A program made the translations under genes and the position numbers. This document shows, in pieces, positions 12,787 to 58,032 of a stretch of DNA of 64,000 nucleotides. The DNA comes from a virus. Lineage: Duplodnaviria > Heunggongvirae > Uroviricota > Caudoviricetes. Every line of letters starts with the position of its first letter. The first letter of the stretch is position 1. Under the pieces are notes generated by a model. It saw only the letters and a program-made list of their open reading frames with translations, did no database searches and was not told where the DNA came from. The stretch lies in the IMG/VR virus record IMGVR_UViG_3300021066_000001. One strand, 5' to 3'.

Positions 12787-12812
12787 GGGTATCTCCCGTG
12801 AGAAAAGTGGAA

Positions 12813-14788: not shown

Positions 14789-14807
14789 AGAACACGAAAG
14801 TGAGAGC

Positions 14808-16760: not shown

Positions 16761-17512
16761 CCGTTGACGATGTCCGAAACCTGTCCGTCGCCGAGCTCGA
16801 TGAGGCGCCAGCCGCCGTCGACGCGCTGAGCGACGTCGAGCGAGAAGAACTTGCTGCGGACCTCGGGAATGATGTCGTAGACAAACATCGGCACAGGCAC
16901 GTCACCGAGCGAAAACAGCGTCCCGTTCAAGATGAAGTAGCGACGCTCGCTACCAGCAACATACTCTTCGGCGCGTCGAAAGGTAATTCCTCCCTCGAGC
17001 TCGCGGTACTGGCGCATCGCCCTGATGATCTCCGTCACCTTCTCTGGAGAGTCGGCGATCGAGCCTGGAGCCGTCTTGAGGGACTTGACGTAGTCCTTGA
17101 TGAAGATCTCGCCCCAGCCGAGCTTGGCGAACTCGGCGGCGTGGTCATCGTTGAGGTTGTAAAACCGCGACTCGGTGGTGTACTGCTGGATCACCGGGTT
17201 GTGGTACCACCCGTAGATCCAGTGAGTGCGGGCGTACTCGTCGACCTGAGTGAGCGGTGTGGCGCCGCGTGAGAGGATCGCGTCAACGAGCTGTCCGTAC
17301 TGCGGCACCGTAAGCATCCATCCCCGATAGACGACGGTCGCCTCCTCGGGGATCTTGCCGATTCCCTTGAAGGTGTACGAGCGCTGAAGCTCGTCGAGGT
17401 CGAAGAGCGACGCTGAGAAGCCCATGCTGAGGGCGAGCGCATGCTGATCCGCGACGAGCTCGTCGGGTTTCTTCCTGCCGAGCGGGTCGCAAGGAAAGAG
17501 GAAGTGAATCAC
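16724..17512 (-). CDS. ATP-grasp fold protein
   Basis: Length and motif pattern (IFIKDYVKS...GSIADSPEK...RRYFILNGTLF...RLIELGDGQVSD) are consistent with phage ATP-grasp/DUF4343 proteins. Confidence 0.45.
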   Translation of the reverse strand: MIHFLFPCDPLGRKKPDELVADQHALALSMGFSASLFDLDELQRSYTFKGIGKIPEEATVVYRGWMLTVPQYGQLVDAILSRGATPLTQVDEYARTHWIYGWYHNPVIQQYTTESRFYNLNDDHAAEFAKLGWGEIFIKDYVKSLKTAPGSIADSPEKVTEIIRAMRQYRELEGGITFRRAEEYVAGSERRYFILNGTLFSLGDVPVPMFVYDIIPEVRSKFFSLDVAQRVDGGWRLIELGDGQVSDIVNGWTADIFMRIWA

Positions 17513-21761: not shown

Positions 21762-22811
21762 TCACGTCAGCTTCTTGAGTGCCCTCAAGACACACTCTGG
21801 CACGTACTGACGCACCGCGCTCTCCCACCCCTCGAGGTGAAGCATGCTCTTGACGACCGACGAGCTCACCTCTGTTAGGTGCGACGGCGGCATCAGGAAG
21901 ACCGTCTCGACCTCTGGCGCGATCTTCTTGTTGACCAGGTTGAGCTGTGTCTCGTAGTCGAAGTCAGTGACGTTGCGGATGCCCCGGAAGACAAACTTGG
22001 AGCCTGTCTCTCTAGCGTAGGCGACGAGCATCTTGTTCTGGGGAAGCGCCGTGATGTTGACCGCTCCTTCTGCCAGGGGCGTCTCTCTGATCGCTTCGGC
22101 CACGAGGGCTTTCCGCTCCTCGAAGTCAAACAGGCCCTTCTTGTTCGGATTATACGCAACCACGACATCGACGGCGTCAACGAGGTCAAGAGCTTTTTCG
22201 ATCAGCCACATGTGACCCTCGGTGATCGGATCGAACGAGCCAGCGACGATCCCTCGCGTGATGCCCCTGGCGACGTCGACCGCCCGTAGCGCCGCCATGT
22301 TGAGATCAGAGTCGGTCGTGTCGATGATCAAGTCGCACTTGTGTGCGTGATCGTGCCAGTCTCCCTGGCTAGCGATGATCGCCTTGATCTTCTCACGGGT
22401 GAAGCCGTTCCGCTTCATCACGCGTTCGATGCGAGTCTCCTCGTCTGCGACAATCGCGATGACCTTGTCGAATTGGTCATCCATCCCCATCTCGAAGAGG
22501 AGGGGAAACTCGACGATGATGTCTCGCTTTCCCGCGTTGAGAAGCAGATTGAGCTTGAGGGACATGAAGGAGCCAAAGAGACCCTCTACCCAGCGCAGCT
22601 TCTCAGGTGCTTGGAAGACGATGTCCGAGATCGCCTTGCGATCGCTGGTCCCGAAGTACTCGAAGAGCTTCGCCTTGATCTCGGTGTCCTCGTAGAGCTC
22701 ACGCACCAGGTCGTCGATGTTGACGAAGTTGAACTCCGTGAGGAGAAGCTTGAGCTTGTTGACGAGCGTCGTCTTTCCGCTTCCGATGCCGCCGGTGATG
22801 GCTATCTTCAC
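21762..22811 (-). CDS. Fusion protein: dephospho-CoA kinase (CoaE-like, N-terminal) + phosphopantetheine adenylyltransferase (CoaD, C-terminal)
   Basis: N-terminus MKIAITGGIGSGKTT...NIDD (CoaE P-loop + DxD). C-terminus GSFDPITEGH...FRGIRNVTDFDYETQLNLVNK...VFLMPPSHL..SSSVVK aligns closely with E. coli CoaD. Confidence 0.75.
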   Translation of the reverse strand: MKIAITGGIGSGKTTLVNKLKLLLTEFNFVNIDDLVRELYEDTEIKAKLFEYFGTSDRKAISDIVFQAPEKLRWVEGLFGSFMSLKLNLLLNAGKRDIIVEFPLLFEMGMDDQFDKVIAIVADEETRIERVMKRNGFTREKIKAIIASQGDWHDHAHKCDLIIDTTDSDLNMAALRAVDVARGITRGIVAGSFDPITEGHMWLIEKALDLVDAVDVVVAYNPNKKGLFDFEERKALVAEAIRETPLAEGAVNITALPQNKMLVAYARETGSKFVFRGIRNVTDFDYETQLNLVNKKIAPEVETVFLMPPSHLTEVSSSVVKSMLHLEGWESAVRQYVPECVLRALKKLT

Positions 22812-43005: not shown

Positions 43006-44502
43006 TTAAGCCATTGCTCTCGCGCGAACGTCGTCGAGCTTCTCGTCGATGAGCAGCACGCCGTTCTCGTAGATCGTGACCATCTGGTCCTGGTACTCGG
43101 CGTCGATCTTCGAGTCCATGTCGAGCGTCACGTACTCGCCGGTGAGAGCGCTCCGGTACAGCGAGAGGCGCCCGCCCTGCGACTTCTTGCCAGCGTCGGT
43201 GATCGGGTTCTTCGCGATCGGCTCCCAGCGGTTTCCGCGGCGAATCGCCGACGCCTTCTGCGCGAAAGAGTAGGTGTCACGGTTGACCTTCTGGAGGAGC
43301 GCGCCGCCAGAGCCGAACACGATGTTGCAGGCCGCGAAGCCCATCTCGGTGACCTGGTCGAGCACCGCGTTCATCAGGTCGAAGTCGACCCCGTCGCCCC
43401 AAATGACTCCGACGTTGTTGATCACGAGAAAGCCTTTCGAGTTCTTCGTGGTGCCGAACGCCGCGGCGAGCTTGCGGAGAATCGCCGGGAGGAGCTCGAG
43501 AGGGTCGCCCGAGTCTGGGCGGAGAACCACCTTGGCGCCAGAAGCGACGATCATGTCCCTCAGTGAGCAAACGACATCGGTCTCACGGAGGGTGTCGTAA
43601 CCGTCGATGACGATCGACACGATGCCGCCCGGCTTGGCCTGAGTCTTGATCACCGTCTCCAGGTACTCGCGCTGACCCATCGCGCCATACGCGGTCTGCA
43701 CGCTGTGCTCGGTGGCAAAAACGCTGTAGGCCGCCATGTCACAGTTGTAGTAGAAGTTCGCCGCGCGTACGCCGTCGATCGTGTCCGATCCGCCGAAATA
43801 GATCAGGTGGGACATGCCGCCGTTTTCGGCTTGCTCTCCGCAAGTGACCCCGCGGCCGCCGAAATCGTGGAGAGCGATCGCGGTCCAGGGCACCGGCGCC
43901 GGATCGTTCGACATCGCGTCATACAGACGCAGCGCACGCCAATTCTTGTAGTCGTTCGACGCGATCGTCGTCATATACCAGACGACGCGCTGAACCGCGG
44001 TCTCGATGTACGACGCGAGCCAGAACAGGTCGGGATCGGTGCACTCGATCGTCCAGAGAGCGTTGCCGCTCGGGACTCGCGTGCCTTCGCGAACGCCGCG
44101 GATCTTCAACGGCAGAAAGCCGTTGTACTTCTTGACGACCTTTTCCCAGCCAGCACGGTTGAAGGTGACGGCGCCTTCACCAGCGATCAAGTGCTTCTTG
44201 GCAAAGGCCTCGGCCTCGTCGATCATCTCCATGGTGATCTGCTTAGAGAGCAGCACCTTTTTGATGAACATCTGCATGCCGACGGGGACGATCGTTTCGC
44301 CCTTTTTACGGGCCGCGAGATAGGAGAACATTCCGTTCGTCGCGGCCGGGTAGATCGCCCAGTGGCCGAGCTTGTAGCTATCCGCTTCGAGCGGAATGTT
44401 GCGGGGCATCAGCGGCTGGCCGCCGCTCCACGCGGTGATGGTCTTCTGGTCAGGTGTGTCTCCGGGTTCCCGGAGGGGTGCAAGTTCAACTGCATTTTTC
44501 AT
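43006..44502 (-). CDS. nadV: Nicotinamide phosphoribosyltransferase (NAMPT/NadV)
   Basis: 498 aa; N-terminal ...LEADSYKLGHW and overall NAMPT-like length and blocks. Confidence 0.8.
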   Translation of the reverse strand: MKNAVELAPLREPGDTPDQKTITAWSGGQPLMPRNIPLEADSYKLGHWAIYPAATNGMFSYLAARKKGETIVPVGMQMFIKKVLLSKQITMEMIDEAEAFAKKHLIAGEGAVTFNRAGWEKVVKKYNGFLPLKIRGVREGTRVPSGNALWTIECTDPDLFWLASYIETAVQRVVWYMTTIASNDYKNWRALRLYDAMSNDPAPVPWTAIALHDFGGRGVTCGEQAENGGMSHLIYFGGSDTIDGVRAANFYYNCDMAAYSVFATEHSVQTAYGAMGQREYLETVIKTQAKPGGIVSIVIDGYDTLRETDVVCSLRDMIVASGAKVVLRPDSGDPLELLPAILRKLAAAFGTTKNSKGFLVINNVGVIWGDGVDFDLMNAVLDQVTEMGFAACNIVFGSGGALLQKVNRDTYSFAQKASAIRRGNRWEPIAKNPITDAGKKSQGGRLSLYRSALTGEYVTLDMDSKIDAEYQDQMVTIYENGVLLIDEKLDDVRARAMA

Positions 44503-44561: not shown

Positions 44562-45731
44562 TCACTTGATCTTTCCGCCCACGTTCGCTCGCTCGAGGCG
44601 GTCGGCGAAGTCCGAGATGATGTCCCAGTGGTCATCGAAGAGCTGGTCCGACATGTTGATCGCTTCGCCGACCGGAAACCACTTCGCCTTGACGGCGTCA
44701 TCGGAGCCCTTCACCTTGGGCAACTTGATCTTGCCGTCGACGACGATGTCAGCCAGCTCGAAGCAGTAGGCCATCGAGACGACGCGGCCGCGGCCGGGCG
44801 AGCGATCCGGGTGCTCGAAGAAGTGGTTGAACTTCAGCGAGTTGCGGAGGGCGAGCTCGGGGACGTCGAGCTTAGTCTCTTCGTAGAGCTCACGAACGGC
44901 GGTGTCGAAGGTCCACTCGAACTCGTCGACGTGGCCGCCCGGGAGCGCCCAGAGGCCCTTGCCGGGTGCAGCGCGGCGTTGGACGAGGAGGATGTGGCCG
45001 GTCTGAAAGACGACGGCGTCGGCCGCGAACTCGATGATCGGGTACTTGCGCACCGTTGAGAGGGCCTTCTTCGCCTCGTTCTTCTTGCGCTCTACCTCGA
45101 ACTCCTCGAGGAGGAGTGAGTAGGCCGGCGTCTCCTTGAAGCGCTCGAGGAAAGCGCGTGACTCGTGAGGGATGAACGCGCGGAGCAGCATCTCGCGGTT
45201 GCCGTCGGTGATCTGGTTGCCCTCGAACTCGTTGCGGAAGAAGAGGTTGCGGAGGGCGGTCGCGGAGAGAACCTTGCTGACGTTGCGGTTCTCCTCAACG
45301 AAGTCCCGCTTCCAGTTGGCCTGGGCGAGGAGCATCTGCAGGTAGAACGTACTAGCGTCGCGCTCGGAACCGGTGAGGTAAACCTCCCTGGCATCGGGCG
45401 CCGCGCGTCTGACCTCGGCCTGGACCTCGGCGAGCCACTTGGTATTGTTATACCTGTAGTCGCGGGCGAAGACGACCTCGAGGTCCGCTAGATCCGACCC
45501 TGGGCGAGGGGCGTTAGCGTTGAACCAATTCTCGTACCAGTTCATGATCACAGCGGCACGTTCGCCGCCGGTGAAGGGATTCTTGGTGGTGCGAGGCTGC
45601 CAGGTCGAGCCGATGACGACGATGACCTTGTTGCTGAGGTTGAGCGCTCGCTCGAGAAGCTCAGCGTGCCCGACGTGGAACAACGAAAACCTACCGATGA
45701 GGACCGTGAGGTCCCGTTTGCTACCTGTCAC
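44562..45731 (-). CDS. natV: Bifunctional NMN adenylyltransferase (NadM-type) / Nudix hydrolase
   Basis: HxGH nucleotidyltransferase motif (GRFSLFHVGH), Nudix box GGHVDEFEWTFDTAVRELYEETKL; GTG start with AAGGAG SD. Confidence 0.8.
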   Translation of the reverse strand: MTGSKRDLTVLIGRFSLFHVGHAELLERALNLSNKVIVVIGSTWQPRTTKNPFTGGERAAVIMNWYENWFNANAPRPGSDLADLEVVFARDYRYNNTKWLAEVQAEVRRAAPDAREVYLTGSERDASTFYLQMLLAQANWKRDFVEENRNVSKVLSATALRNLFFRNEFEGNQITDGNREMLLRAFIPHESRAFLERFKETPAYSLLLEEFEVERKKNEAKKALSTVRKYPIIEFAADAVVFQTGHILLVQRRAAPGKGLWALPGGHVDEFEWTFDTAVRELYEETKLDVPELALRNSLKFNHFFEHPDRSPGRGRVVSMAYCFELADIVVDGKIKLPKVKGSDDAVKAKWFPVGEAINMSDQLFDDHWDIISDFADRLERANVGGKIK

Positions 45732-46161: not shown

Positions 46162-46604
46162 AGGCCAGATTGATAGATGAGCTTGATCTTGAGGAACTTT
46201 TCGATCTCTTCCCAGTTTTCAGCCTGGGTGCAGGGTTCAGCGATCAGCTGCTTGAAGTTTCTAAGCGCATCGTCGTCCGTCCAGCGATTCTTGATGAACG
46301 TCTTGTCGGCCAGGTCATAGATGATCGACGCCGAGTACTTCCCCTTCAGCGGGATCCTCCACGCGAAGTCATTCCCGGGACTCACCCTCCGTCCAACCTC
46401 GATGATAAAGTTTTCGTTCTTGCCTGACCTCGTGAACGCCGGACCGAATGACAAAAACATGAAATGGTGATCCGGGCGCATCTCTCTGATGTGGGGCCAA
46501 TCGAAGTCGTCAGGCGGAGTGGGAGCTACGATGTGTCCAGCTCGCTTGAACACCTCATAGAGCTCATCGCTCAAAGCTCGATCACCTGCCCCTTCTGCGC
46601 CCAA
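46158..46604 (-). CDS. Hypothetical protein
   Basis: ORF track. Confidence 0.45.
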   Translation of the reverse strand: MGAEGAGDRALSDELYEVFKRAGHIVAPTPPDDFDWPHIREMRPDHHFMFLSFGPAFTRSGKNENFIIEVGRRVSPGNDFAWRIPLKGKYSASIIYDLADKTFIKNRWTDDDALRNFKQLIAEPCTQAENWEEIEKFLKIKLIYQSGL

Positions 46605-47461
46605 CCCTTGAAGCCGTCAGCAACGGCGTCGGCCTTCGGTCCAAACTGATAGTGGTAGAGCCACATCTTCGCCTTCGTCTCGGCGGGAAGCGTCTTGAGC
46701 TGGTCGTAGTGCGCGTGAACCCGTGACTTGAAGGGAGTCGTCTCGCAGTCGTGGAGAATCAGATCGGCCGCGTTGTAAAAGTCGACGATCTGCTCGGGAT
46801 TGAACTGGGTGTCCGACGTCCAGAAGACGTTCTTGCCGTTCGCCTTGAACTCGAGCCCGAACGACGGCATGATGCGATTGTCCGACATGATGTGAACGAC
46901 CTGGATCAGCTTCATGTTCAGGCCGCACCAGCTGAACTGTCCCTTCTTGCCGACGCGCTGCAAATTGAAGTAGGTGTCGAGGTCAGCCGCCTCTCCCTGC
47001 TTGGAGTCCATGCCGCCGGACAGCGACTTGCTCCAGAGCTCGTACGCGAGGGAGCGATCGATGATCAGGTTGGGCTTCGGCTTTCCGGCAAAGTGGGTCA
47101 TGAAGCCGATGTACTCCATGCCGCCGACGTGATCGGCGTGCGGGTGGCTGATGTAGACGTCGTTGATGTCCCACGCCGTTAGGCCTTGCTCGCCGAGCGA
47201 GAAACGGACGTCGCCTCCGGCGTCCCAGAGCATGCGCCGCGTGCCGAGGGTCGGGTGCGTGGCGGTCAAGACGAGGTTGCTCTGCCAGTTGCTGGTGCGG
47301 CCGGCCTTGAGAGCCTCGATGTCGGTGTAGAACGCCGCGCCAGTGCCGAGAAACTGGATCTGGTACTTGTAGCCGAGATTGAGATCCTTGAGATCTCCGA
47401 TCTTGAAGCTGATCGTCTTGTCGAGATCGATCGTTTGGTCGAGCTTTTCGGTGCTTTCCAT
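46571..47461 (-). CDS. Metallo-beta-lactamase-fold hydrolase (RNase Z/ElaC-like; candidate Apyc1-type cyclic-nucleotide phosphodiesterase)
   Basis: FLGTGAA, HPHADHVGG (HxHxDH), downstream His/Asp ligands. Confidence 0.6.
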   Translation of the reverse strand: MESTEKLDQTIDLDKTISFKIGDLKDLNLGYKYQIQFLGTGAAFYTDIEALKAGRTSNWQSNLVLTATHPTLGTRRMLWDAGGDVRFSLGEQGLTAWDINDVYISHPHADHVGGMEYIGFMTHFAGKPKPNLIIDRSLAYELWSKSLSGGMDSKQGEAADLDTYFNLQRVGKKGQFSWCGLNMKLIQVVHIMSDNRIMPSFGLEFKANGKNVFWTSDTQFNPEQIVDFYNAADLILHDCETTPFKSRVHAHYDQLKTLPAETKAKMWLYHYQFGPKADAVADGFKGWAQKGQVIEL

Positions 47462-48867: not shown

Positions 48868-49341
48868 TTACGGAACCGGGATGACAGAGATGGAGTGCTT
48901 GGCTGAGCCAGAGATGAGCCTGGTCGAGTACGAGACGTAGACGAGAACGCGCCGCTCCTTGTCGTAGAAACGCTTCACCTTGAGGTGCTTGAAGATGGGT
49001 GAGCGACTCTCTCGAAAGACCTCCTCACCCTGCTCGATCGCGATCCTGAGGATCAGCGAGGGGCCGATCTGGCGACACGCGATCGAGGCGTCGGAGGTCT
49101 CTTCGGCGAAGGGGTTGAGCGTGCCCCTGACCGTGTAGCTGATGTAGCAGTAAGCTCCCTCGACCTTTGGATCGGCGAAGGCGTCGATCGCGATCTTGCT
49201 GTTGGGGCCCATGAAGTTGATCTCGGTCGTCACCTCACCGATCCGATCGCGAGCGTGTGCGCTGGTCATGAAGCCGCAGATCGCCATGAGGAGAACGAAG
49301 ATCGCGAAGACCGCGCCGTGCAGATCCATCTTTTTGGTCAT
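48868..49341 (-). CDS. Secreted or lipoprotein-like protein
   Basis: Signal peptide with a Cys in the hydrophobic core region (VFAIFVLLMAICGF). Confidence 0.45.
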   Translation of the reverse strand: MTKKMDLHGAVFAIFVLLMAICGFMTSAHARDRIGEVTTEINFMGPNSKIAIDAFADPKVEGAYCYISYTVRGTLNPFAEETSDASIACRQIGPSLILRIAIEQGEEVFRESRSPIFKHLKVKRFYDKERRVLVYVSYSTRLISGSAKHSISVIPVP

Positions 49342-49859: not shown

Positions 49860-50549
49860 TTATTTGATGAACTTCTTAGGGTCTGGTTGTTGCTCCGCGA
49901 TTCGCTGAATCTCGCCGTTCTCATGCTTCCACCGCACGTTTAGCACGGGCATCTGGTGCTGCTGGATGCGATTGAAAGCTTCTACGGCGATCTCGAGGAT
50001 CTTTTGCGGAGAAACGAAGGCGCCAGACCCGTCATGGACGTCGAGGAGAACCTTGTGGGTGATGAGTGAGCGATCGAAGGCCCGGTAAAAGTCGTTCTGC
50101 TCCTCCTCCCTCTGAGTGACGTCAAACGACTTGCCGTCATCGGAGATGAAGTTCCAGTCGGAGGTGTGGAGAAGAATGAGGAGCGTTCGCTCATCGAACT
50201 TGGAACCGATGCTCTTGAAGTGGCGCTCGAGCTCGAAGACGTACGTTCCGTCGTACTTGCGGTACCTCGGGGCGTACACAAACTCTCCCAGGTGAGCTCG
50301 ATCTAGGATCAGCTTCGCCTCTGAGGAGAGCATCCTGAGCATGGTGGTGAAGGACTCGAGCTGGTATTGCTTCAAGGCCTCACGGCTTCGCTCTTGCTGG
50401 TGGAGAATCGGCCCTGTCAGGTAGCGATCGAGGAGCTTGGGCTTCTCGTAGTGAATGACTTGAAAGTAACCGAGCCGCTGGAGAAGACCCTCGATCAGCG
50501 TGCCCTTGCCGAGACGATCGCAGCCCTCGATGATGATCGACGAGAACAT
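49860..50549 (-). CDS. Thymidylate-kinase-like P-loop (d)NMP kinase
   Basis: IIIEGCDRLGKGT (like IEGxDGAGKTT); start trimmed to an internal ATG. Confidence 0.5.
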   Translation of the reverse strand: MFSSIIIEGCDRLGKGTLIEGLLQRLGYFQVIHYEKPKLLDRYLTGPILHQQERSREALKQYQLESFTTMLRMLSSEAKLILDRAHLGEFVYAPRYRKYDGTYVFELERHFKSIGSKFDERTLLILLHTSDWNFISDDGKSFDVTQREEEQNDFYRAFDRSLITHKVLLDVHDGSGAFVSPQKILEIAVEAFNRIQQHQMPVLNVRWKHENGEIQRIAEQQPDPKKFIK

Positions 50550-50749
50550 CAGAACGCGATGAGACCGGTGATGACCGAGAAGATCGCAGCGGCGAAGCAA
50601 CCGAGGCCGATGAGGGTAGGAAATACTCCGGCCAAGCCGTCGGCGAATGTGCCAGAGCCCCCGCTAGCGTTCGCTCCCCAGAACATGAACGTTCCTCCGA
50701 GAGCGCACAAGAAGATCGGCACGTACCACCAGTGAAGAATGATCGTCAT
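50549..50749 (-). CDS. Small membrane protein
   Basis: Two TM helices. Confidence 0.45.
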   Translation of the reverse strand: MTIILHWWYVPIFLCALGGTFMFWGANASGGSGTFADGLAGVFPTLIGLGCFAAAIFSVITGLIAF

Positions 50750-50755
50750 GTCCCT

Positions 50756-51127
50756 TTACTTGGCGAGCTTGAGATTGGCGCCGCCGGGCATCTGGCTTGG
50801 GCTAGCGAGAGCGATGCTCGTCGTCTGTTGCATGTAGATCTTCTCGAGCTCGGGATCTGGCGCGTAGACCGCGATCGCGATGTCCTTCAGGTCGACACTG
50901 AGCTTGACGTCCTGGTTGCCCAGAGTCCAGGGCATGATCGCGAGACCCTTCCCGAGCGGGTGGAAGCCGACGACCCGGGTGTCGGTGAGAACGACCGCGA
51001 GGCTCTTGAGAGGTTGACCTTCCTGAAGCAGATCGTCGAGGTTGATGCCGACGGACGAGAGGGGCGACTCGGTGGCCTTAGCGATGATGTCCTCGCCGGT
51101 GGTGAGCTTGATGCAGATGATCTTCAT
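50756..51127 (-). CDS. Hypothetical protein
   Basis: ORF track. Confidence 0.5.
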   Translation of the reverse strand: MKIICIKLTTGEDIIAKATESPLSSVGINLDDLLQEGQPLKSLAVVLTDTRVVGFHPLGKGLAIMPWTLGNQDVKLSVDLKDIAIAVYAPDPELEKIYMQQTTSIALASPSQMPGGANLKLAK

Positions 51128-51801
51128 GTGATCTCCAGGTATTTGAAGTGTCTTGAGTAGACGTGTAACGAGCCGGCGTTCCAGAAGATGGGTCCCTCCT
51201 GGAGGTTCGGGTAGGTGTAGCGAAGGTCACCGAGAAGCTGGTCCCTGACGTGCTTCTGCCAGTGAAAGTCGTTGTTGTAGCCAAACACCGCGTCGTTCGA
51301 CCGCATGTCGACCTTAGTGACGAGGGCTTCCTCGCGGATGAAGTATTGCACAGTGTTGGTGCAGATGAAGTCTTGCATCCCGTCACGGTTGAAATCGACG
51401 TGCATCGATGGCCGAGTGTAGATCATGACCGCGCGGCGTGACGTCGAGTCCCGGTCAAGCTCGGTCAGAACGTTCTGGTATTGCATTCCGTTCTGAAACC
51501 CGTAGATGCACCAGCCGTAGTTGGAGTTGATCTCGCGCTTAGAGCTAGCTACCTGAGACCAGATCTGCGGCGGGCCGCCCGGGATGTCGTCGACGTTGAG
51601 AGACATGCTCTCGTACCACTGGAGCTCGCGCTTCGCCCACTCCTCGTTGAGGGAGCCGAAGATTGTCGGCTCGTCAGCCAGAAAGCACGCGTTGATGATC
51701 TCAACGGTCTGCGCGCCCGTCTTGTTGTTGCCGATCGTCATGAACTTTTGATTTCGGTAGAGCTCGATGAGCTGAGCTCGGATGTCGCGCACTAGCATCA
51801 A
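51124..51801 (-). CDS. Deoxycytidylate 5-hydroxymethyltransferase (T4 gp42 homolog)
   Basis: Matches T4 gp42 blocks: KTG.QTVEII.A.F.ADEP.IFG.LN, SKREINSNYGW, SRRAVMIYTRPSM, FICTNTVQY, MRSNDAVFG, WNAGSLHVYSRHF. Confidence 0.85.
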   Translation of the reverse strand: MMLVRDIRAQLIELYRNQKFMTIGNNKTGAQTVEIINACFLADEPTIFGSLNEEWAKRELQWYESMSLNVDDIPGGPPQIWSQVASSKREINSNYGWCIYGFQNGMQYQNVLTELDRDSTSRRAVMIYTRPSMHVDFNRDGMQDFICTNTVQYFIREEALVTKVDMRSNDAVFGYNNDFHWQKHVRDQLLGDLRYTYPNLQEGPIFWNAGSLHVYSRHFKYLEIT

Positions 51802-52112
51802 GCTCGCTTCCCTCCGCCTGAGCGGTGGGGCTTGACCGGACGACCCTTGTCGATCTCGACTCCGAGTTGCTCCACGAACTTTTTCACGTCACTCGGAGCT
51901 ACATCTACCTCAATGAGAGCAACGCTTCTTCCCTTGCGACGTACTCTCTCGCGAGCTCCCTGGTGGGGAAAGTAACCGCGCTTGTCTCCTCGGGCGCGAG
52001 CCTCAAGCAAGAGCTTGCGACTGGTTGTGTGAAGCACGGGAGTAAAGTCGATCTTTGTGGGATCGACAGGAATTCCTGCGATGTTTATCGGCTTAGTGTC
52101 TTCGGAGTTCAT
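51798..52112 (-). CDS. Hypothetical protein (weak SUI1/YciH-like resemblance)
   Basis: RRKGRSVALIEVDVAPSDVKKFVEQL vs SUI1 GRKGKGVCLITGLDLDDAELTKLAAEL; weak. Confidence 0.35.
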   Translation of the reverse strand: MNSEDTKPINIAGIPVDPTKIDFTPVLHTTSRKLLLEARARGDKRGYFPHQGARERVRRKGRSVALIEVDVAPSDVKKFVEQLGVEIDKGRPVKPHRSGGGKRA

Positions 52113-52115
52113 TTG

Positions 52116-53204
52116 TCATTCTACCTTGCCGCCAGCTAGCCGTAAATTTTCCCGGAGGTACTCGTTGTTTGGCTCGATCGCTAGAGCTTGACGAATCAAC
52201 TCGACGCCCTCAGCGCGCATCCCCATCCAGTAAGCGGAGACACCCGCGAGGTTGTGCGGCTCATATCCCCATGCCGACGGCTCGTTGAGATAGACGTTTG
52301 GGCGCTCCTTGATCGCGAGCGCTCGAGTCATCGCCGCGTAGCAGCCGACGTGGTCCTTCCGCGTCTCATAGAGAAACTTTCCGTACTCGACCCAGGGCTC
52401 TCGGGTACGGGGCTCCTCGGCGCAAGCACGTAGTAACCAGCGCTCGGCCTCGTCAAGCTGACCGAGCGCTTGCAAGCAACGCGCGATGTAACGCATCGAG
52501 GCAGCTCGCTCGGCGTTCCAGGTCGCTCGCTTGAGGGTGAGGTGACGCTTCAGCTCGGCGATCGCGTGGTCCCACATCCCGTAGTACATGTACTCGCGAC
52601 CGAGATAGTGAGAGTTGCGGTCATCCTCTGGCTCCTCACGCACCGACAGCTCGAGGAGCGAGAGGTAGGAGCCTCGTGACTTCGTCGGGTCGGGGTAGTG
52701 ATAGAGCTTGAACCCGTCGACGAAGAGCTGCGTCTCTTCGCCCTTGTAGAAGGCGAGGGTCTCGTGGACAGGCTTGACCCAACGAAAGCCTCCTCGGGTG
52801 TGGATCTTGTCGTACCAGTATGTCGTCCCCTCTCGACCGTCAGGGAGAGTGTTCCACACGTACTGGTAGCGGACTCGATCTGGCTTCTTTTCTGCCTTGA
52901 GATAAGCCTCCTCGAGGCACTTGCGCCACCCGGGCGAGAGCACCTCATCGAGGTCGATGCACACGCAGAGGTCGACGTCGGCGGGTACGAGCTGCATCGA
53001 GATGTTTCGAGCGACGTCGAACCGCCACGGCTTGAGCTTGATGACATCGACCTGCGCGCCGCGGCGCCGTAGGGCTTCGACCGTACCGTCGGTAGAGCCG
53101 GTGTCGGTAACGTAGACGCCGTCAGCCTCGTTGCAAATCGAGTTCATGAAGCGATCAACGAACTTCTCCTCGTTGAGCGCGATGGTGTAGACGACGATCT
53201 TCAT
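52116..53204 (-). CDS. GT-A fold (GT2-like) glycosyltransferase fused to C-terminal TPR repeats
   Basis: YVTDTGSTDGT nucleotide-sugar-binding motif, DLD (DxD), then 3-4 TPR-like repeats (AELKRHLTL..., YIARCLQALGQLDEAERW...). Confidence 0.6.
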   Translation of the reverse strand: MKIVVYTIALNEEKFVDRFMNSICNEADGVYVTDTGSTDGTVEALRRRGAQVDVIKLKPWRFDVARNISMQLVPADVDLCVCIDLDEVLSPGWRKCLEEAYLKAEKKPDRVRYQYVWNTLPDGREGTTYWYDKIHTRGGFRWVKPVHETLAFYKGEETQLFVDGFKLYHYPDPTKSRGSYLSLLELSVREEPEDDRNSHYLGREYMYYGMWDHAIAELKRHLTLKRATWNAERAASMRYIARCLQALGQLDEAERWLLRACAEEPRTREPWVEYGKFLYETRKDHVGCYAAMTRALAIKERPNVYLNEPSAWGYEPHNLAGVSAYWMGMRAEGVELIRQALAIEPNNEYLRENLRLAGGKVE

Positions 53205-53563
53205 GCCAGCAACTTCCAGAACTCTCGGTCGACGATCTCCGACATGCCAGCCTCTAGCAAACGCGACTGCGTCGTGAGCTTCACGGAGATCTCATTCATC
53301 TTCTTCACTGACTCGCTCTCTACCTCACTAACTCGTCTCGCGTAGATGGGATAGGATGGGAAGAAGAAGTCGCCTAACGCTTGCTCTAGCGCTGCTGGAA
53401 GAGCATCCGCCATCGCTCGCTCGTCGTAGAGCCGGCCGCCGGCGTTTGTCTTCGTGACTTGGAGCTCGTCCAACATGAACAAGTCAGCCGTGCGTCCTCT
53501 GATCTCAGCAGCCATCCGCGTCTCTCGCTTCCTCACGCAACCACCCCTCTTGCCAGAGCTCAC
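53201..53563 (-). CDS. Hypothetical protein
   Basis: ORF track; start uncertain. Confidence 0.4.
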   Translation of the reverse strand: MSSGKRGGCVRKRETRMAAEIRGRTADLFMLDELQVTKTNAGGRLYDERAMADALPAALEQALGDFFFPSYPIYARRVSEVESESVKKMNEISVKLTTQSRLLEAGMSEIVDREFWKLLA

Positions 53564-53709
53564 GGCGATGATCCACGTACGGACATTGCTCGTACATCGC
53601 GCCCTCCCAGTACGCGTCGGCGCCCTCGCTCACCACGAGCTCGTCGACGTGACGCTGGCGATACGCGTCGAGCGGATCGAACCCGTCGATGAGCGGGAGC
53701 GAGCTTACG

Positions 53710-54117
53710 TCATCTGTCATTTCCATTACCCTTGAGCACTCCTCGAGACCATCTATCGGCGAGCTTGGTGACGTTGTAAGACATCACCTCTTGAGGATTT
53801 AGGTCGTGAGCCGTCGCGATCCTCACTAGATAGTAAAGGATGTCTCCGAGCTCCTTCTTGAGCTGATCCCTGTCAAGCTTGCCGTCACGCACCCACTTCT
53901 TGAGGAGCTCCATCACCTCGCCGGTCTCACCTGACAGGCCGACGGTCATGATGTAGTGGTCGCGCAGCTTCAGCTTTCCCTCGTTGAGCCACACCGCGTC
54001 GACGAACTTCGCGTACTCGTTGAGGGTGATGTCCCCCTTCGCGGCCGCCTCGACGATGTTTCGTTCCTTAGCTTGCTGCTTGTTTTCCCTCGTGCTAGCT
54101 CTTCTGCGTGGAATCAT
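53710..54117 (-). CDS. MazG-like nucleoside triphosphate pyrophosphohydrolase (candidate dCTPase/dUTPase)
   Basis: GLSGETGEVMELLKKW...ELGDILYYLVRIA matches the phage MazG EExxE/ExxD core. Confidence 0.65.
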   Translation of the reverse strand: MIPRRRASTRENKQQAKERNIVEAAAKGDITLNEYAKFVDAVWLNEGKLKLRDHYIMTVGLSGETGEVMELLKKWVRDGKLDRDQLKKELGDILYYLVRIATAHDLNPQEVMSYNVTKLADRWSRGVLKGNGNDR

Positions 54118-55813
54118 TGACTTCCTGCTTTAGTTGCTCGAACGCCTCACCCCAGCACGACGGGTCGTAGTGGTAGCTTGACGGGCGATGGGTGATCTGT
54201 TCTGCTTGCATGACGTAAGATCTAGCTTCAGCGAGCATCCCGGCTTGCTTGTAGATGCGCGCCGCGTAGGTCTTGTACTCTCTCGACGCCGGGCTCTCGG
54301 CGATCGCTCTCACCATGTGTTGAGCCGCGTCGTTTAAGGCACCGGCGGTCTGGAACGCGCCTGCCACCTGGGCGTGGAGGAATCCACGGTCCGCGTTAGG
54401 GCACTCTAGCGCCTTCTCGTACGCTCTCAACGCGTCATCGAAGCGCCCGACCTTGAGCAAATCCGCCGCGTAGAACGAGTAGAGCTTCCAGCGGGTTGAG
54501 TCCTCGCGGAGAGCTTGCTCGAGGAGCGGGAGGTACGTTGACCGATCCTTTAAGGGGTCAGGTTTCTGAACCATCTTGATCCCGCCGAGCCACTTGATGA
54601 TCTCAGCTTGTCTGTTGATCTTGACGAGTACCTCATGCACCGGGAGCTTCCACTGGTAGCCGTGACGGTTGTGGATGCGCTCGTGCCAGTGGCTCGAGAT
54701 CTGCGTACCGGCGCCGTGCCAGTCCCAGATCGACTCGAAGCGGTGGTGATAGCGATCACGCGGGCGACCGATCTCTTGCAAGTCCTTCTCGATCTCCTCG
54801 ATGAGGAGCTCTCTCCAGTTAGGCGTATCCATCAGCTCGTCGGCGTCGATCGAAACACACATGTCGATGTCCTCAGGAACGAGACAGAGAGCGGCGTTTC
54901 GCGCGTCGTCAAATCGCCAGGGATCGACGTGGAGCTTGACTACCCTCATGGTGTTCGTCGACGCGCCGCGCAGGTGACCTGAGTGATCGTAGTGAAACTG
55001 AAGGTCCCTCTCGTGGCCGTGGCTCTCGGTGCGCTCCTCCACGAATCGTACGAGTTGCGTGAAGGTCTCGTCCGATGATCCGGTGTCGCAGAAGACGATG
55101 AAATCAGCCTCTTGGATCGACTCGTAGCAGCGCTTGATGAACTTGCTCTCGTTCTTGCAGATCCCGTAGACGGCGATCTGGGGCTTCAGCACGTCGTGCA
55201 GAAGCTCCTTGACGAACGGCGTTGACGAGAGGAAATAGATGCCGATCTCGGCCTCGCGACCCCACGAGACGACGTGCTCACCGACGCACTCCATGAACTC
55301 CTCGTGAGTCCAGTCATCCTTGAGATGAGCCTCGTACGGGTTGCCATTGTACTCGTCCTGCGGATAGTGCCCGAGGGGAACGCTGACGATCACGAGCCGG
55401 CCGAGTCCGAGCGCGTTCTTGATCAGCTTCACAGCTCCCTCTGGCCCGTCCTTGGGGAGATGCTCGATCACGTCACCGAGAAAGATGATGTCGAAAATCG
55501 GAGCTGGACAGGGCGACAGCCAGTTCGGTGCTCTCCAACCGGTCAGCAAAATTTGACCGTGGGCGACGTGGAGCTTATCGTACTTCTCGAGTAGCCCGAA
55601 CTCTGCGACGTAGGGTTCCCAGATCTCGATGCCTTCCCAGTGAAACTTTGGCCGGGGTAGGTGGCTTTTCGCATAGCGGTCAGAGTACGTGCCTGAGCCA
55701 GCACCGAAATCTAGGACCCGGTGTTCGCTGTAAAAGAGCTTAGAGATCTGGTGATTGATGCGGAGGATCGCGCGATCAATCAACTGCTTCCCGGAGTCTG
55801 AACTAAATGGCAT
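54095..55813 (-). CDS. Three-domain protein: class I SAM methyltransferase + GT-A (GT2-like) glycosyltransferase + TPR repeats
   Basis: N-terminus VLDFGAGSGTYS (MTase motif I); middle IVFCDTGSSDET...D.D; C-terminus TPR-like (YEKALECPNADRGFLHAQVAGAFQTAGALNDA...). Paralogous to 52116..53204 in the GT+TPR part. Confidence 0.6.
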   Translation of the reverse strand: MPFSSDSGKQLIDRAILRINHQISKLFYSEHRVLDFGAGSGTYSDRYAKSHLPRPKFHWEGIEIWEPYVAEFGLLEKYDKLHVAHGQILLTGWRAPNWLSPCPAPIFDIIFLGDVIEHLPKDGPEGAVKLIKNALGLGRLVIVSVPLGHYPQDEYNGNPYEAHLKDDWTHEEFMECVGEHVVSWGREAEIGIYFLSSTPFVKELLHDVLKPQIAVYGICKNESKFIKRCYESIQEADFIVFCDTGSSDETFTQLVRFVEERTESHGHERDLQFHYDHSGHLRGASTNTMRVVKLHVDPWRFDDARNAALCLVPEDIDMCVSIDADELMDTPNWRELLIEEIEKDLQEIGRPRDRYHHRFESIWDWHGAGTQISSHWHERIHNRHGYQWKLPVHEVLVKINRQAEIIKWLGGIKMVQKPDPLKDRSTYLPLLEQALREDSTRWKLYSFYAADLLKVGRFDDALRAYEKALECPNADRGFLHAQVAGAFQTAGALNDAAQHMVRAIAESPASREYKTYAARIYKQAGMLAEARSYVMQAEQITHRPSSYHYDPSCWGEAFEQLKQEVNDSTQKS

Positions 55814-55820
55814 CTGTGAA

Positions 55821-55829
55821 CATAAATAT
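55821..55829 (+). promoter_or_regulatory. T4-late-like promoter variant CATAAATAT
   Basis: 52 nt before the collagen-like gene ATG, the same spacing as the TATAAATAG/PARP pair. Confidence 0.3.
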
Positions 55830-55881
55830 GCTCAATAGTAACTTGCATCAATTCACGCGGATATTTTTCTAAGGACTAGCG

Positions 55882-58032
55882 ATGAGCTTGACAGGACCTA
55901 CCGGGCCACAAGGATTTCCTGGACCCACAGGACCCACCGGGTGGACCGGACCTGTAGGCGCGACTGGAGCCTCGCTCACTGGTCCGACCGGTCCTGCTAG
56001 CGGACCCACCGGAGCCACAGGGCCGCAAGGATTTCCGGGTGTCACTGGTCCGACCGGTGTCATTGGTCCGACTGGAGCGACCGGGGCAAGCGGCGTCGCA
56101 GGAGCCCGCGGACAAACCGGTCCGACTGGAGCTACCGGCGCCGATGGGGTCTCCCTCACGGGACCGACCGGGGCGACCGGAGCAGGGGGTGATGACGGAG
56201 CTGACGGAGCTACAGGCCCGACCGGTCCGACTGGAGCGACTGGCGCCTCAGGGCTTTCTGTAACTGGACCTACTGGTGCGAAGGGCGCGACCGGCCCGAC
56301 GGGGCTTTTAGGAGCTACTGGTCCGACCGGAGCTGCAGGTCTCTCGCTGACCGGGCCTACCGGCGCGAGCGGGGTAGCTGGCCCGACAGGAGCCGGCGGA
56401 GCTACAGGAGCTACAGGAGCTTCTGGTATCTCGGTAACCGGTCCGACTGGAGCCAAGGGACCTACCGGCGCGACAGGTGCATCGGTGACTGGACCGACAG
56501 GGCCCTCGATCACGGGACCTACCGGTCAATCTGGAGCTCGAGGAGAGACAGGCCCGACCGGAGCTACCGGTGCCGCTGGGATCTCCCTCACAGGCCCGAC
56601 CGGAGCTACAGGAGCTGGTGGGGATGACGGATCGGACGGAGCTACAGGACCGACCGGCCCGACCGGAGCTACAGGAGCAGCTGGCATCTCGGTCACTGGC
56701 CCGACCGGCGCGAAGGGAGCGACCGGGCCGACGGGTTGGACAGGCCCATCGGGGGAGACCGGTGCGTCGCTGACAGGACCGACCGGACAGTCTGGAGCTC
56801 GCGGAGAGACCGGTCCGACAGGAGCTACAGGAGCGGCTGGAGTTTCACTTACCGGTCCGACCGGAGCTACAGGAGCTGGCGGAGATGACGGGTCTGACGG
56901 AGCTACAGGACCTACCGGTCCGACCGGAGCGACGGGGGCGGCCGGCGTCTCGATGACCGGTCCGACCGGCGCGAAGGGAGCGACCGGGCCGACAGGAGCT
57001 TCGGTGACCGGACCGACAGGAACGTCTCTCACTGGACCGACAGGGCAATCTGGAGCTCGCGGAGAGACAGGGCCGACGGGATGGACAGGGCCAGCAGGGT
57101 CTAACGGAGCGGCGGGACCGACGGGGGCGACAGGTCAATCAGGACAGCGCGGAGAGACCGGTCCTACTGGGCTCTCGCTGACAGGGCCCACGGGAGCTTC
57201 TCTGACAGGGCCCACGGGAGCTGCAGGAGCTCGCGGACAGACCGGTCCGACCGGAGCGACGGGCACCACAGGTCCGACAGGTCCAAACATCACTGGTCCG
57301 ACAGGAGCTCAAGGGCAGCCAGGAGCAACTGGACCGACGGGATCGCAGGGAGTGACAGGTCCGACCGGATGGACAGGTCCGAGCGTTACGGGTCCGACCG
57401 GCGTCACCGGGCCCCTCGGTCCGACAGGCTCCACAGGCGCGACAGGCCCCTCGGGCGGACCGACTGGACCGACAGGCTGGACGGGTCCGAGCGTCACGGG
57501 ACCGACCGGACCGCAGGGAACAACTGGACCGACCGGAACAACAGGGCCGAGCGTTACAGGCCCAACTGGAACGGGTGGTGCTACTGGACCGACTGGGGCA
57601 ACTGGGCCGCAGGGGACAGGTGGGCCGACAGGGCCGAACGGGCTCGTCGGCGGAGCTGGTCCGACAGGTCCTACAGGAATTCGTGGTCCGACCGGCCCGA
57701 CCGGATGGACAGGTCCGAGCGTTACGGGCCCGACCGGCGTCAAGGGAGCTACCGGGCCGACAGGCCCCGCGAACACGATCATCGACGGCAGCGCAACGTT
57801 CAACCCTGGCAATTTGGTTGACGGCGCGGGTGAGTCGACGACGGTGACCGCGACCGGCGCAGCGCTGGGCGACTTCGCTGTCGCATCCTTTTCGCTCGAC
57901 ACGCAAGGTCTCACGGTCACCGCGAACGTCACCGCAGCTGACACTGTCACGGTCAGGTTCCAAAATGAGACCGGTGGCGCGATCGACCTCAACAGCGGCA
58001 CGCTCCGCGTCAGGGTGTGGAAGCTCGCATGA
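55882..58032 (+). CDS. Collagen-like (interrupted Gly-X-Y) fibre protein with C-terminal globular domain; probable tail fibre
   Basis: ~620 aa of GPTGxTG triplets, internal tandem repeats, C-terminal ~90 aa non-collagenous beta-rich domain. Confidence 0.75.
56152..57090 (+). repeat. Intragenic tandem repeats (~85-140 aa units, 3 copies) inside the collagen-like gene
   Basis: [16 protein letters not shown](A/S)[31 protein letters not shown] ... [14 protein letters not shown] recurs at aa ~91, ~235 and ~322. Confidence 0.7.

Follow-up and report, generated by a model that had tools for sequence, protein, structure and literature searches.

Two genes in a 64-kb window, the whole stretch of DNA analysed and part of a phage contig of ~396 kb, encode glycosyltransferases (GTs) combining a GT-A domain with a TPR domain, and with a probability of roughly two in three they form a protein O-glycosylation cassette acting on the collagen-like fibre encoded divergently beside them. 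This assignment rests on gene association and homology and is supported by comparative genomics, fold and acceptor motifs; the threonines of the phage's own fibre are most likely the decorated residues. A sequence-only reading had proposed both fibre glycosylation and glycosylation of hydroxymethylcytosine (hmC) in DNA; the former is favoured here and the latter disfavoured. The features discussed are collected in Table 1.

Table 1. Features of the glycosyltransferase region and its flanks
Feature	Coordinates	Strand	Description
dCMP hydroxymethylase, T4 gp42 type	51124..51801	-	225 aa; PDB 1b49 match
GT1	52116..53204	-	362 aa; GT-A (GT2-like), residues 1-~175; C-terminal TPR, ~178-360
MazG-like NTP pyrophosphohydrolase	53710..54117	-	between the GT1 and MT-GT genes; Pfam MazG, PHROG 229
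MT-GT	54095..55813	-	572 aa; class-I SAM methyltransferase, ~1-205; GT-A, ~210-420; TPR, ~425-572
Intergenic spacer, MT-GT/collagen-like gene	55814..55881		68 bp, AT-rich, sequence read directly
Collagen-like fibre gene	55882..58032	+	716 aa; Pfam Collagen

GT1 had been described as a GT2-like protein with TPRs, as indeed it is: it matches Pfam Glycos_transf_2 (9e-10), TPR and PHROG 13126 (1.4e-107), and carries the motifs DTGSTD, DLDE and PVHE, invariant as D34-T-G-S-x-D39, D84-L-D86-E87 (the DxD motif) and P145-V-H147-E148. The second enzyme, MT-GT, was rightly recognized as its paralog with an added SAM methyltransferase, the two being 33% identical over the GT and TPR parts; it retains CDTGSSD, DADE and PVHE, and matches Pfam Methyltransf_23 (2e-7, residues 18-174), TPR_19, weakly GT2, and PHROG 13126 (1.7e-53). 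The family to which both belong, "TPR-containing glycosyltransferases", is very large, with at least 4948 homologs of GT1 at E<=1e-10 and at least ~100 full-length homologs of MT-GT. The AF2 models have a pLDDT of 95.1 (GT1) and 94.8 (MT-GT, pTM 0.90). The structure search that had been proposed for both proteins returned SunS/ThuS as the best PDB match of each (for GT1, Foldseek E 2e-16 and TM 0.65, with GmaR next), and the DxD motif is present in both (DLDE and DADE).

The closest solved relatives of the family are protein or peptide glycosyltransferases, and the fold points to peptide substrates. SunS and ThuS (PDB 7msn, 7msk) share with GT1 the GT-A domain coupled to a helical, TPR-like peptide-binding domain, but sequence identity is only 16-20%, GT1 scores 24.6 bits with the NCBIfam SunS equivalog against a cut-off of 350, and these enzymes are glycocin S-glycosyltransferases acting on the Cys of a small bacteriocin peptide. 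By sequence, the PDB matches of GT1 are GmaR (1.2e-6, residues 7-171, the catalytic domain) and SunS (1.6e-4). GmaR of Listeria monocytogenes, a flagellin beta-O-GlcNAc transferase of the GT2 + TPR type (PDB 22ao/7x9r, PMC9638930), shares with GT1 the motifs DTGSTD, DxDE and (V/I)HE and likewise contains TPRs; its acceptors are Ser/Thr residues of a protein. It differs in being larger (a 448-residue chain in 7x9r), in acting also as an anti-repressor, and in its target, flagellin rather than collagen-like repeats. A still nearer parallel, judged by its published description, is SgtA of Clostridioides difficile (358 aa, N-terminal GT-A and C-terminal TPR), encoded beside bclA3, the gene for a collagen-like protein of the spore exosporium; it transfers beta-O-GlcNAc onto Thr of GPT/GAT-type peptides in an Mn2+-dependent reaction (PMC7157674), which fits a DxD enzyme. 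Like sgtA, the window genes adjoin a collagen-like gene, here one rich in the GPT and GAT triplets found in the SgtA acceptor peptides. The context is a spore in one case and a phage in the other; sgtA lies upstream of bclA3, most bacterial homologs lie downstream of the collagen gene and the window arrangement is divergent, and the window has, unlike the SgtA/BclA3 system, an extra paralog with a fused methyltransferase.

The predicted acceptor of the pair is the 716-aa collagen-like protein, in which GT1 is predicted to O-glycosylate Thr/Ser of the repeats. Its collagen nature had been read correctly (Pfam Collagen, 6e-54), but not its position "immediately downstream": the gene is on the opposite strand, divergent from the GT operon across 68 bp, and is therefore not downstream of it. 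The GT genes share their strand with nucleotide-metabolism genes and are interleaved with them, an arrangement that counts against the fibre as substrate. The spacer is presumed to be a divergent promoter region; a sigma-70 consensus scan of it gave no convincing site. The protein consists of 19 G-X-Y runs followed by a non-collagen C-terminal domain of ~86 aa, for which no Pfam match was obtained, and it has numerous matches to PHROG families labelled "tail fiber" and "collagen like minor tail"; it is presumed to be a virion component. Among its 183 G-X-Y triplets the Y residue is Thr 102 times and Ser 26 times, and GPT occurs 54 times, GAT 29 times; these two triplets are the acceptor motif of SgtA (PMC7157674), and the stretch [11 protein letters not shown] resembles a peptide substrate of SgtA, [15 protein letters not shown].

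The association with collagen-like genes extends across the family, as a scripted scan of 80 bacterial and 80 viral GT-family loci indicates. In bacteria a collagen-like ORF lies within 2 kb of the GT gene in 56/80 loci (within 300 bp in 49) and farther out in one, a 170-fold ratio of near to far density (binomial P 5e-33); the viral loci have one within 2 kb in 19/80 and farther out in 18 (2.8-fold, P 0.0015). No collagen-like ORF was seen in the available sequence of 23/80 bacterial and 43/80 viral loci, and the GT family may therefore serve further acceptors. The linkage was also seen by eye in Clostridiales CCNA10, and on the annotated Peribacillus plasmid p16118 a "collagen-like protein" is followed by a "glycosyltransferase", with "exosporium protein C" nearby; close bacterial relatives are positioned to glycosylate spore-surface collagen-like proteins.

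The whole pair recurs beside collagen-like or fibre genes in other genomes. In Cohnella sp. CFH 77786 a 567-aa MT-GT-TPR protein (36% full-length identity to the window's MT-GT) is followed by a 363-aa GT-TPR protein (54% identity to GT1), the pair adjoining a convergent gene for a 1936-aa collagen-like protein with GPT repeats; the vicinity holds no TS-like gene. A 222-kb contig of an unrelated phage (L168) has MT-GT and GT genes followed by a 2646-aa GPT-repeat collagen-like fibre and a Phage_tail_fib gene, and on a 193-kb phage contig the same two genes precede a 1341-aa Peptidase_S74 fibre. In the Actinomycetia phage DSL-LC01 a GT gene (45% identity) closes an operon that includes two collagen genes, and a 345-kb contig (L007) repeats the divergent layout of the window, with a 1410-aa collagen-like fibre opposite the GT pair. 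In Brevibacillus fluminis the pair occurs with no collagen gene close by. In L004/L005 (a 249-kb contig, 58%-identical relative) the order from MT-GT through GT1 to hydroxymethylase is kept, the collagen gene is absent at the equivalent position, and the 17 kb available contain no collagen-like ORF, which counts against the fibre as substrate.

The genes of nucleotide metabolism were also identified correctly beforehand. The dCMP hydroxymethylase matches T4 gp42 over its full length (PDB 1b49, E 2.3e-77) and keeps the catalytic Cys148 in CTNTVQY and the specificity Asp179 in NND, and the MazG-type gene matches Pfam MazG (2.3e-9) and PHROG 229 (8e-32). The hydroxymethylase gene directly follows GT1 in the same leftward gene string, the phage also has a dNMP-kinase-like gene and MazG-like genes, and, as far as sequence can tell, phage DNA containing hmC is a reasonable premise. 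It would then be conceivable, if improbable, that one or both GT-A + TPR enzymes attach a sugar to 5-hydroxymethylcytosine and the fused methyltransferase methylates it, the enzymes replacing the T4-type GT-B glucosyltransferases and shielding the DNA from restriction. In related jumbo-phage contigs the GT pair is followed by homologous or analogous hydroxymethylase genes; four related large-phage contigs have this order with the specificity Asp kept, among them the collagen-less L004/L005, and L007, with a hydroxymethylase of only 33% identity. The earlier statement that no GT-B is visible stands for the Pfam-scanned window ORFs of >=200 aa, among which no T4-type GT or other GT-B was detected; the window being 64 of ~396 kb, a dedicated DNA GT may sit elsewhere on the contig. 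The T4 alpha- and beta-GTs are GT-B enzymes, and the window GTs share the GT-A fold with a newer class of DNA GTs and a neighbouring pyrimidine hydroxymethylase with phage hmC/5hmC DNA GTs; glycosylation of phage DNA at 5hmC by GT-A enzymes is already known, some of these being encoded beside ThyS-like genes (bioRxiv 10.1101/2023.12.21.572611).

However, what speaks for the DNA as target is this hydroxymethylase adjacency, which is confined to one clade of related jumbo phages; the entire neighbourhood is syntenic there (dNMP kinase, CreA, DDAH-like, NadR and NAMPT genes), so that it carries little weight. Unlike DNA GTs, the family shows no association with TS or 5mYOX genes outside the clade: TS/HMase homologs occur near the GT in 0/80 bacterial and 1/80 viral loci, where linkage to collagen is tight instead. 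The published DNA GT-As are JGT/TarP-like, have R..DDD..EDY/F motifs and lack TPRs (Pyle et al., bioRxiv 10.1101/2023.12.21.572611), whereas the window GTs have DTGSxD/DxDE/PVHE motifs and TPRs, and GT1 matches TarP/TarS-type structures weakly (Foldseek TM ~0.35). GT1 is acidic (pI 6.15, inside the range of its bacterial relatives). Of 128 positions with >=90% conservation among 49 bacterial homologs adjacent to collagen genes it retains 113, and of the 57 such positions within the TPR domain, 49. Its identity is 54-55% to bacterial members linked to collagen and 58% to phage relatives linked to an HMase. Judged from its sequence, conservation and pI give no sign of an altered acceptor. The hydroxymethylase probably serves a separate function in nucleotide metabolism, and with the dNMP kinase and MazG it is read as a distinct set located in one syntenic block together with the GTs; the position of MazG next to a GT is not conserved among 160 related loci, although a GT/MTase/MazG neighbourhood is also seen in phages DSL-LC01 and Phrappuccino. 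Simultaneous action on fibre and hmC-DNA, or one paralog per target, is very improbable: the two paralogs do differ in architecture, and in the window and L007 alike the pair is flanked by hydroxymethylase and collagen genes, but the recurrence of the pair beside collagen in Cohnella and L168, where the hydroxymethylase is absent, counts against it, and the literature searched yielded no precedent.

It is also unlikely that the enzymes act on further virion proteins such as capsid, tail tube or other fibres, as in mycobacteriophages, or on a host surface or protein, so that the adjacent collagen-like product would not be the principal substrate. Distant homologs in the cultured jumbo phages PaBG, Lu11, Erwinia Y3 and Alcaligenes Afa-NA1 lie in the structural module, in the interval between DNA ligase and head maturation protease, without an adjacent collagen gene, in many family loci the available flanks contain no collagen-like ORF, L004/L005 keep the GTs without one, and the nearest phage relatives of the MT domain are methyltransferases beside mycobacteriophage GT clusters. 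Yet the structural-module homologs are only 25-37% identical, the closest homologs (45-55%) are collagen-linked, the window, L007, L168, DSL-LC01 and Cohnella all have GT(s) beside collagen-like or fibre genes, and more than 100 Thr triplets of acceptor type are available in the fibre.

If the fibre is the substrate, the TPR domain would bind the G-P/A-T repeats, while these are unfolded or trimerising, in the cytoplasm of the infected cell, and the metal-dependent GT-A domain (DxD) would move a sugar from a host UDP-sugar to the hydroxyl of Thr/Ser in the Y position of GPT/GAT triplets. The initiating enzyme would likely be GT1, and the sugar may be beta-O-GlcNAc, by analogy with SgtA and GmaR. 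MT-GT, the predicted second enzyme of the pair, contributing sugar addition and methylation, would add a further or alternative sugar, and its fused SAM-methyltransferase would methylate that glycan or, less likely, protein. The outcome would be a glycan-coated virion fibre, whose stability, adsorption or shielding could change.

Phage GTs accompanied by a methyltransferase have a parallel in mycobacteriophages. Freeman et al. are said to have described in 2023, in Cell Host Microbe, GTs and a methyltransferase that modify virion proteins, reportedly at the C-terminal ends of the subunits of capsid and tail tube and with small GT families without TPR. That system differs from the window in lacking a collagen-like acceptor and in its GT families. 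The earlier view that either hypothesis would be an undescribed phage module was overstated, since 5hmC GT-As, O-glycosylation of collagen repeats by the GT-A + TPR enzyme SgtA, and virion glycosylation in mycobacteriophages (capsid and tail tube, as cited in PMC12619734) are all published. The methyltransferase domain of MT-GT is 33-35% identical to methyltransferases adjoining GT clusters in Phrappuccino-type phages.

The two glycosyltransferases of the window, GT1 and its methyltransferase-bearing paralog MT-GT, probably form a phage-borne GT-A+TPR O-glycosylation system for collagen-like proteins, with the collagen-like fibre encoded next to the pair as its substrate (a probability of about 0.65). 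In the six-frame listing and the GC3-guided gene map, MT-GT opens a string of minus-strand genes running leftward from ~55813 to 47888. The sequence-only reading had placed the collagen gene immediately downstream of the glycosyltransferases; it lies instead on the opposite strand, divergent and outside their operon. This orientation is the sole correction, the remainder of the observation being borne out by the gene map and domain searches. A promoter and terminator scan of 47.5-59.8 kb gave nothing interpretable within the divergent spacer.

Coordinates of the glycosyltransferase locus and of other features of the window
Feature	Coordinates	Strand	Remark
DFP-like (CoaBC) protein	1687-2952		cofactor biosynthesis
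ABC-transporter ATPase	3608-4447		phage-encoded
Binding-protein-dependent permease component	5048-5827		phage-encoded
594-aa protein with C-terminal OmpA domain	5913-7697		phage-encoded
ORF, 368-369 aa	7729-8838	-	high GC3; no Pfam or PHROG match
Canonical thymidylate synthase	9664-10548	-	in addition to the hydroxymethylase
Second MazG/PRA-PH-like pyrophosphohydrolase	11171-11836	-	
CoaE + cytidylyltransferase-like fusion	21762-22811		cofactor biosynthesis
ORF, 368-369 aa	37772-38878	-	high GC3; no Pfam match
NAMPT	43006-44502		cofactor biosynthesis
NadR-like NMN adenylyltransferase/Nudix protein	44562-45731		cofactor biosynthesis
Metallo-beta-lactamase-fold protein	46571-47461	-	Apyc1 family match
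Arginine-dihydrolase/DDAH-like, 317 aa	47888-48841	-	end of leftward string
CreA	48868-49341	-	leftward string
dNMP/thymidylate-kinase-like gene	49860-50600	-	leftward string
Hydroxymethylase	51124-51801	-	then small ORFs
GT1, 362 aa	52116-53204	-	then 104-aa ORF
MazG-like	53710-54117	-	then two small ORFs
MT-GT, 572 aa	54095-55813	-	first in leftward string
Collagen-like gene	55882-58032	+	divergent from MT-GT, 68-bp AT-rich spacer
ORF, 289 aa	58017-58886	+	overlaps 3' end of collagen gene

GT1 consists of a Glycos_transf_2 domain (Pfam, 9e-10) and TPRs, and MT-GT of a Methyltransf_23 domain followed by GT and TPR parts, as had been proposed; both match PHROG 13126. Their GT+TPR parts are 33% identical and share the DTGSxD, DxDE, and PVHE motifs, the DxD version of MT-GT being DADE, while DTGSxD and D84-x-D86-E87 are invariant in an alignment of 46 homologs of GT1. 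In the AlphaFold2 model of GT1 (pLDDT 95.1) the GT-A domain takes up residues 1-~175 and the TPR helices residues 178-359; with Pfam, the DxD motifs, the modelled GT-A topology of both proteins (pLDDT ~95), and GT-A structure matches all in agreement, their assignment to the GT-A fold holds. The Foldseek search, which the sequence-only reading had named as a check, returned GT-A structures for both proteins, with the DxD site kept. The best whole-chain matches of GT1 are SunS and ThuS (E 2e-16, TM 0.65), with TPR proteins and GmaR next; for MT-GT (pLDDT 94.8, pTM 0.90) SunS/ThuS are again on top, most of the list being taken up by matches to the GT and TPR parts. The high pTM suggests that the methyltransferase domain may pack rigidly against the GT domain. 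By sequence, the solved structures nearest to GT1 are Listeria GmaR (1.2e-6) and then SunS/ThuS. GmaR is a flagellin O-GlcNAc transferase, and SunS and ThuS are glycocin S-glycosyltransferases. Membership of the SunS family (TIGR04195) was rejected at 24.6 bits against an equivalog cut-off of 350, the resemblance being in fold only; NCBIfam has no specific model for either protein, giving only sub-threshold SunS and TPR matches. The standalone methyltransferase at 1022-1687 was likewise discarded as a relative of the MT domain, having no similarity to it. At E<=1e-10 the GT1 family has no fewer than 4948 members, annotated at source as "tetratricopeptide repeat-containing glycosyltransferase", and the same GT-A+TPR fold is present in many uncultured phages and giant viruses in the viral structure library BFVD.

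The collagen-like ORF was recognized correctly from sequence (Pfam Collagen, E 6e-54) and contains 183 G-X-Y triplets, 102 of them with Thr at the Y position, including 54 GPT and 29 GAT; its C-terminal domain matches no Pfam family. From PHROG tail-fibre matches and analogous loci we infer that the protein is a virion fibre. The closest functional parallel is SgtA of C. difficile (CD3350 in strain 630), a 358-aa protein with a GT-A domain and four TPRs, the gene of which adjoins bclA3, and which uses UDP-GlcNAc and Mn2+ to place beta-O-GlcNAc on Thr of peptides with collagen repeats, among them [15 protein letters not shown] and [15 protein letters not shown] (PMC7157674). GT1 has the same architecture, N-terminal GT-A and C-terminal TPR, at nearly the same length; acceptor-type GPT/GAT triplets occur both in the SgtA peptides and in the window fibre, which also contains [11 protein letters not shown], and a glycosyltransferase gene adjoins the collagen-like gene here too, with 68 bp between the divergent MT-GT and collagen genes. 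On each feature tested, as compared with the published description of SgtA, the phage enzymes would thus appear to "work like" it. In the mechanism proposed, the TPR domain would bind the G-P/A-T repeat region, and a DxD/metal-dependent transfer would bring a sugar, possibly GlcNAc, from a host UDP-sugar to Thr/Ser, with GT1 as the likely initiator; MT-GT would then add a second or alternative sugar, and its fused methyltransferase domain would methylate the glycan in a SAM-dependent manner. The fusion itself is uncharacterised, and its domain composition predicts methylated sugars on the glycan.

The association of this family with collagen-like genes was counted in 160 loci, 80 of them viral and 80 bacterial, that hold relatives of GT1 at 43-58% identity; every six-frame ORF there was scored for collagen-like runs as well as for homology to the neighbour genes in the window. 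In the bacterial loci, mostly of spore-forming Bacillota, 56 have a collagen-like ORF within 2 kb (49 within 300 bp) and one farther away, corresponding to 0.215 vs 0.0013 per kb (binomial P 5e-33), and in 53 of the 56 it lies upstream of the glycosyltransferase on the same strand. The viral loci show a weaker enrichment, 19 near and 18 farther (0.066 vs 0.023 per kb, binomial P 0.0015). Direct checks gave the same picture: in Clostridiales bacterium CCNA10 the glycosyltransferase starts 97 bp past the end of a 462-aa GPT/GAT protein, and on Peribacillus plasmid p16118 an annotated "collagen-like protein" is followed by a "glycosyltransferase", with "exosporium protein C" nearby. Cohnella sp. 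CFH 77786 encodes a 567-aa protein 36% identical to MT-GT over its full length, methyltransferase domain included, followed by a 363-aa protein that shares 54% identity with GT1 and by a convergent protein of 1936 aa, which consists of GPT repeats for nearly its whole length and has a globular domain at its C-terminus; the trio is flanked by ordinary rhamnose-catabolism and transporter genes. Among phages, MT-GT and GT genes on a 222-kb contig are followed by the convergent gene of a collagen-like fibre 2646 aa long, with 215 G-X-Y triplets, and by a Phage_tail_fib gene, with no TS-like gene at the locus. A 193-kb phage contig carries MT-GT and GT genes followed by a 1341-aa Peptidase_S74 fibre. 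In Actinomycetia phage DSL-LC01 the glycosyltransferase (45% identity) is the last gene of an operon with two collagen genes. A "tryptophan halogenase" (an FAD-dependent enzyme, 6433-8004) lies between these and the glycosyltransferase in the same operon, and a UDP-galactopyranose mutase and a second glycosyltransferase are nearby; this gene content hints at a more elaborate fibre modification.

Since the pair stands beside a dCMP hydroxymethylase, glycosylation of hydroxymethylated DNA has to be weighed against that of the fibre. The hydroxymethylase is, as claimed, a T4 gp42 homolog (match to 1b49, E 2.3e-77, over residues 2-221, its whole length), its TS fold keeping the catalytic Cys148 and the cytosine-specifying Asp179 of T4, with "FICTNTVQY" and "YNNDFHW" aligned to "FMCTNTVQY" and "FRNDYAW" of T4. 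A canonical ThyA (Pfam 3.6e-95) accompanies it in the window, as in T4, and with this gene content 5-hydroxymethylcytosine in the phage DNA is plausible. The order of a glycosyltransferase pair followed by a TS-like gene recurs in a relative on a 249-kb contig (L004/L005; GT1 ~58-59% and hydroxymethylase 53% identical), on a 718-kb contig, and on a 345-kb contig, where the hydroxymethylase-like gene is just 33% identical but retains the Asp. The strongest point for a DNA target is that the 249-kb relative lacks the collagen gene at this position, no collagen-like ORF lying in the 17 kb covered; since a homolog of the window's 289-aa ORF there stands directly opposite MT-GT, at the collagen gene's place, the latter is an insertion or deletion at the locus. 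However, the whole block, including the dNMP kinase, CreA, DDAH-like, NadR, and NAMPT genes, is colinear in the related contigs, so that adjacency of the hydroxymethylase within this clade says little, and the 345-kb contig has the exact arrangement of the window, its collagen-like fibre gene (1410 aa) being divergent from the pair. A ThyS-like hydroxymethylase or 5mYOX neighbourhood is seen in the window and in three related jumbo-phage contigs and is absent from 159 of 160 other family loci (TS/HMase genes in 0/80 bacterial and 1/80 viral loci). GT1 shows no sign of a changed acceptor: of the 128 positions conserved at >=90% in 49 bacterial homologs that adjoin collagen genes, it keeps 113 (in the TPR domain, 49 of 57); it is acidic like them (pI 6.15), and is about equally similar to collagen-linked bacterial members (54-55%) and hydroxymethylase-linked phage members (58%). 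Conserved residues of its TPR groove are R196, H199, Y200, R203, H221, W229, E232, R233, R238, W256, R268, and E269. A DNA target for the pair is improbable.

The pair was also compared with known DNA glycosyltransferases. T4-type alpha- and beta-glucosyltransferases (GT-B) were rejected, there being no such Pfam matches and the predicted fold being GT-A + TPR; none is among the top 50 Foldseek matches listed (PDB, BFVD). Glycosylation of 5hmC-type DNA by GT-A phage enzymes has already been published, those enzymes being JGT/TarP-like with R..DDD..EDY/F motifs and no TPR (Pyle et al., bioRxiv 10.1101/2023.12.21.572611); by this description the window pair is set apart by its DTGSxD, DxDE, and PVHE motifs and its TPRs, and TarS/TarP-type Foldseek matches to GT1 are weak (TM ~0.35, TarP at rank 31 or lower). 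Co-option of a TPR-bearing spore-coat/fibre-type GT-A pair to put a (methylated) sugar on 5-hydroxymethylcytosine DNA, replacing or besides fibre glycosylation, is given little credence; it would represent a third structurally distinct DNA glycosyltransferase class, in which a sugar methyltransferase would for the first time be fused to the enzyme. That the pair serves both fibre and DNA in this phage is highly improbable. Another protein or an envelope component as the target is unlikely too, if the least so of the alternatives. More distant homologs, 25-37% identical, in PaBG, Lu11, Erwinia Y3, and Alcaligenes Afa-NA1 are part of the morphogenesis module, where they have the ligase gene on one side and the head protease gene on the other.

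Whichever the acceptor, the term "undescribed phage module" was too strong, as neither enzyme type nor idea is categorically new: besides GT-A DNA glycosylation, glycosylation of virions by phage glycosyltransferases is known for mycobacteriophages, according to work cited in PMC12619734, and the MT domain resembles methyltransferases adjoining glycosyltransferase clusters in such phages. Literature searches combining phage collagen-like fibres with a dedicated glycosyltransferase returned no paper describing the link. Should fibre glycosylation be confirmed, large phages, probably of Gram-negative hosts, would carry a portable two-enzyme cassette sugar-coating collagen-like fibres and common to phages and spore-forming Bacillota at ~50% identity. 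With a family this large, hundreds of its members lying in viral contigs, such glycosylation could be common and yet have received hardly any study; adsorption, the stability of virions, and the way in which therapeutic phages are recognized by the immune system would all be affected. The hypothesis lends itself to direct testing. Annotation is misleading here, as genes of the family are routinely called "beta-1,4-glycosyltransferase / LOS" or presumed to protect DNA, and a glycosyltransferase adjoining a hydroxymethylase is not automatically DNA-modifying.

The exact GT1 protein is found on a 395,674-bp metagenomic contig (ENA ERZ27257322 k141_1025171). A search for near-identical DNA of the region in 50,697 phage records gave no match, hence no annotated close relative. 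The T4-like topoisomerase II of the window is closest to those of Xanthomonas and Ralstonia jumbo phages (~47%), so that the host is probably Gram-negative; an RNA ligase is encoded along with the NAMPT/NadR and CoA-pathway genes. The MazG call holds (Pfam, PHROG), but MazG was rejected as a conserved partner of the glycosyltransferases, being missing from 160 related loci. A neighbourhood of a glycosyltransferase, a class-I SAM methyltransferase, and a MazG-like gene was seen in three unrelated phages: that of the window, DSL-LC01 (10607-13799), and Mycobacterium phage Phrappuccino (2994-6288). The two ORFs of 368-369 aa are the window's only unannotated genes of T4-type glucosyltransferase size. 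A few kb from the glycosyltransferase block of the 249-kb relative (14348-17114) are a HAD + NTP_transferase fusion, a short-chain dehydrogenase, and a DHQ-synthase/Fe-ADH-like gene, sugar-nucleotide-type genes with no equivalent in the window. The 289-aa ORF matches no family in Pfam, PHROG, or NCBIfam, and a Pol-beta nucleotidyltransferase-like GS...DxD motif can be discerned in it by eye. The DDAH-like protein (NCBIfam Arg_dihydro, 4.8e-47, below cut-off) is encoded downstream of the hydroxymethylase block in the related jumbo-phage contigs as well, its place being constant. It is also worth mentioning that the protein with a metallo-beta-lactamase fold scores 70 bits (2.2e-19) with the Pfam model of the anti-Pycsar Apyc1 family, the cut-off of which is 50; its gene is a candidate for counter-defence.
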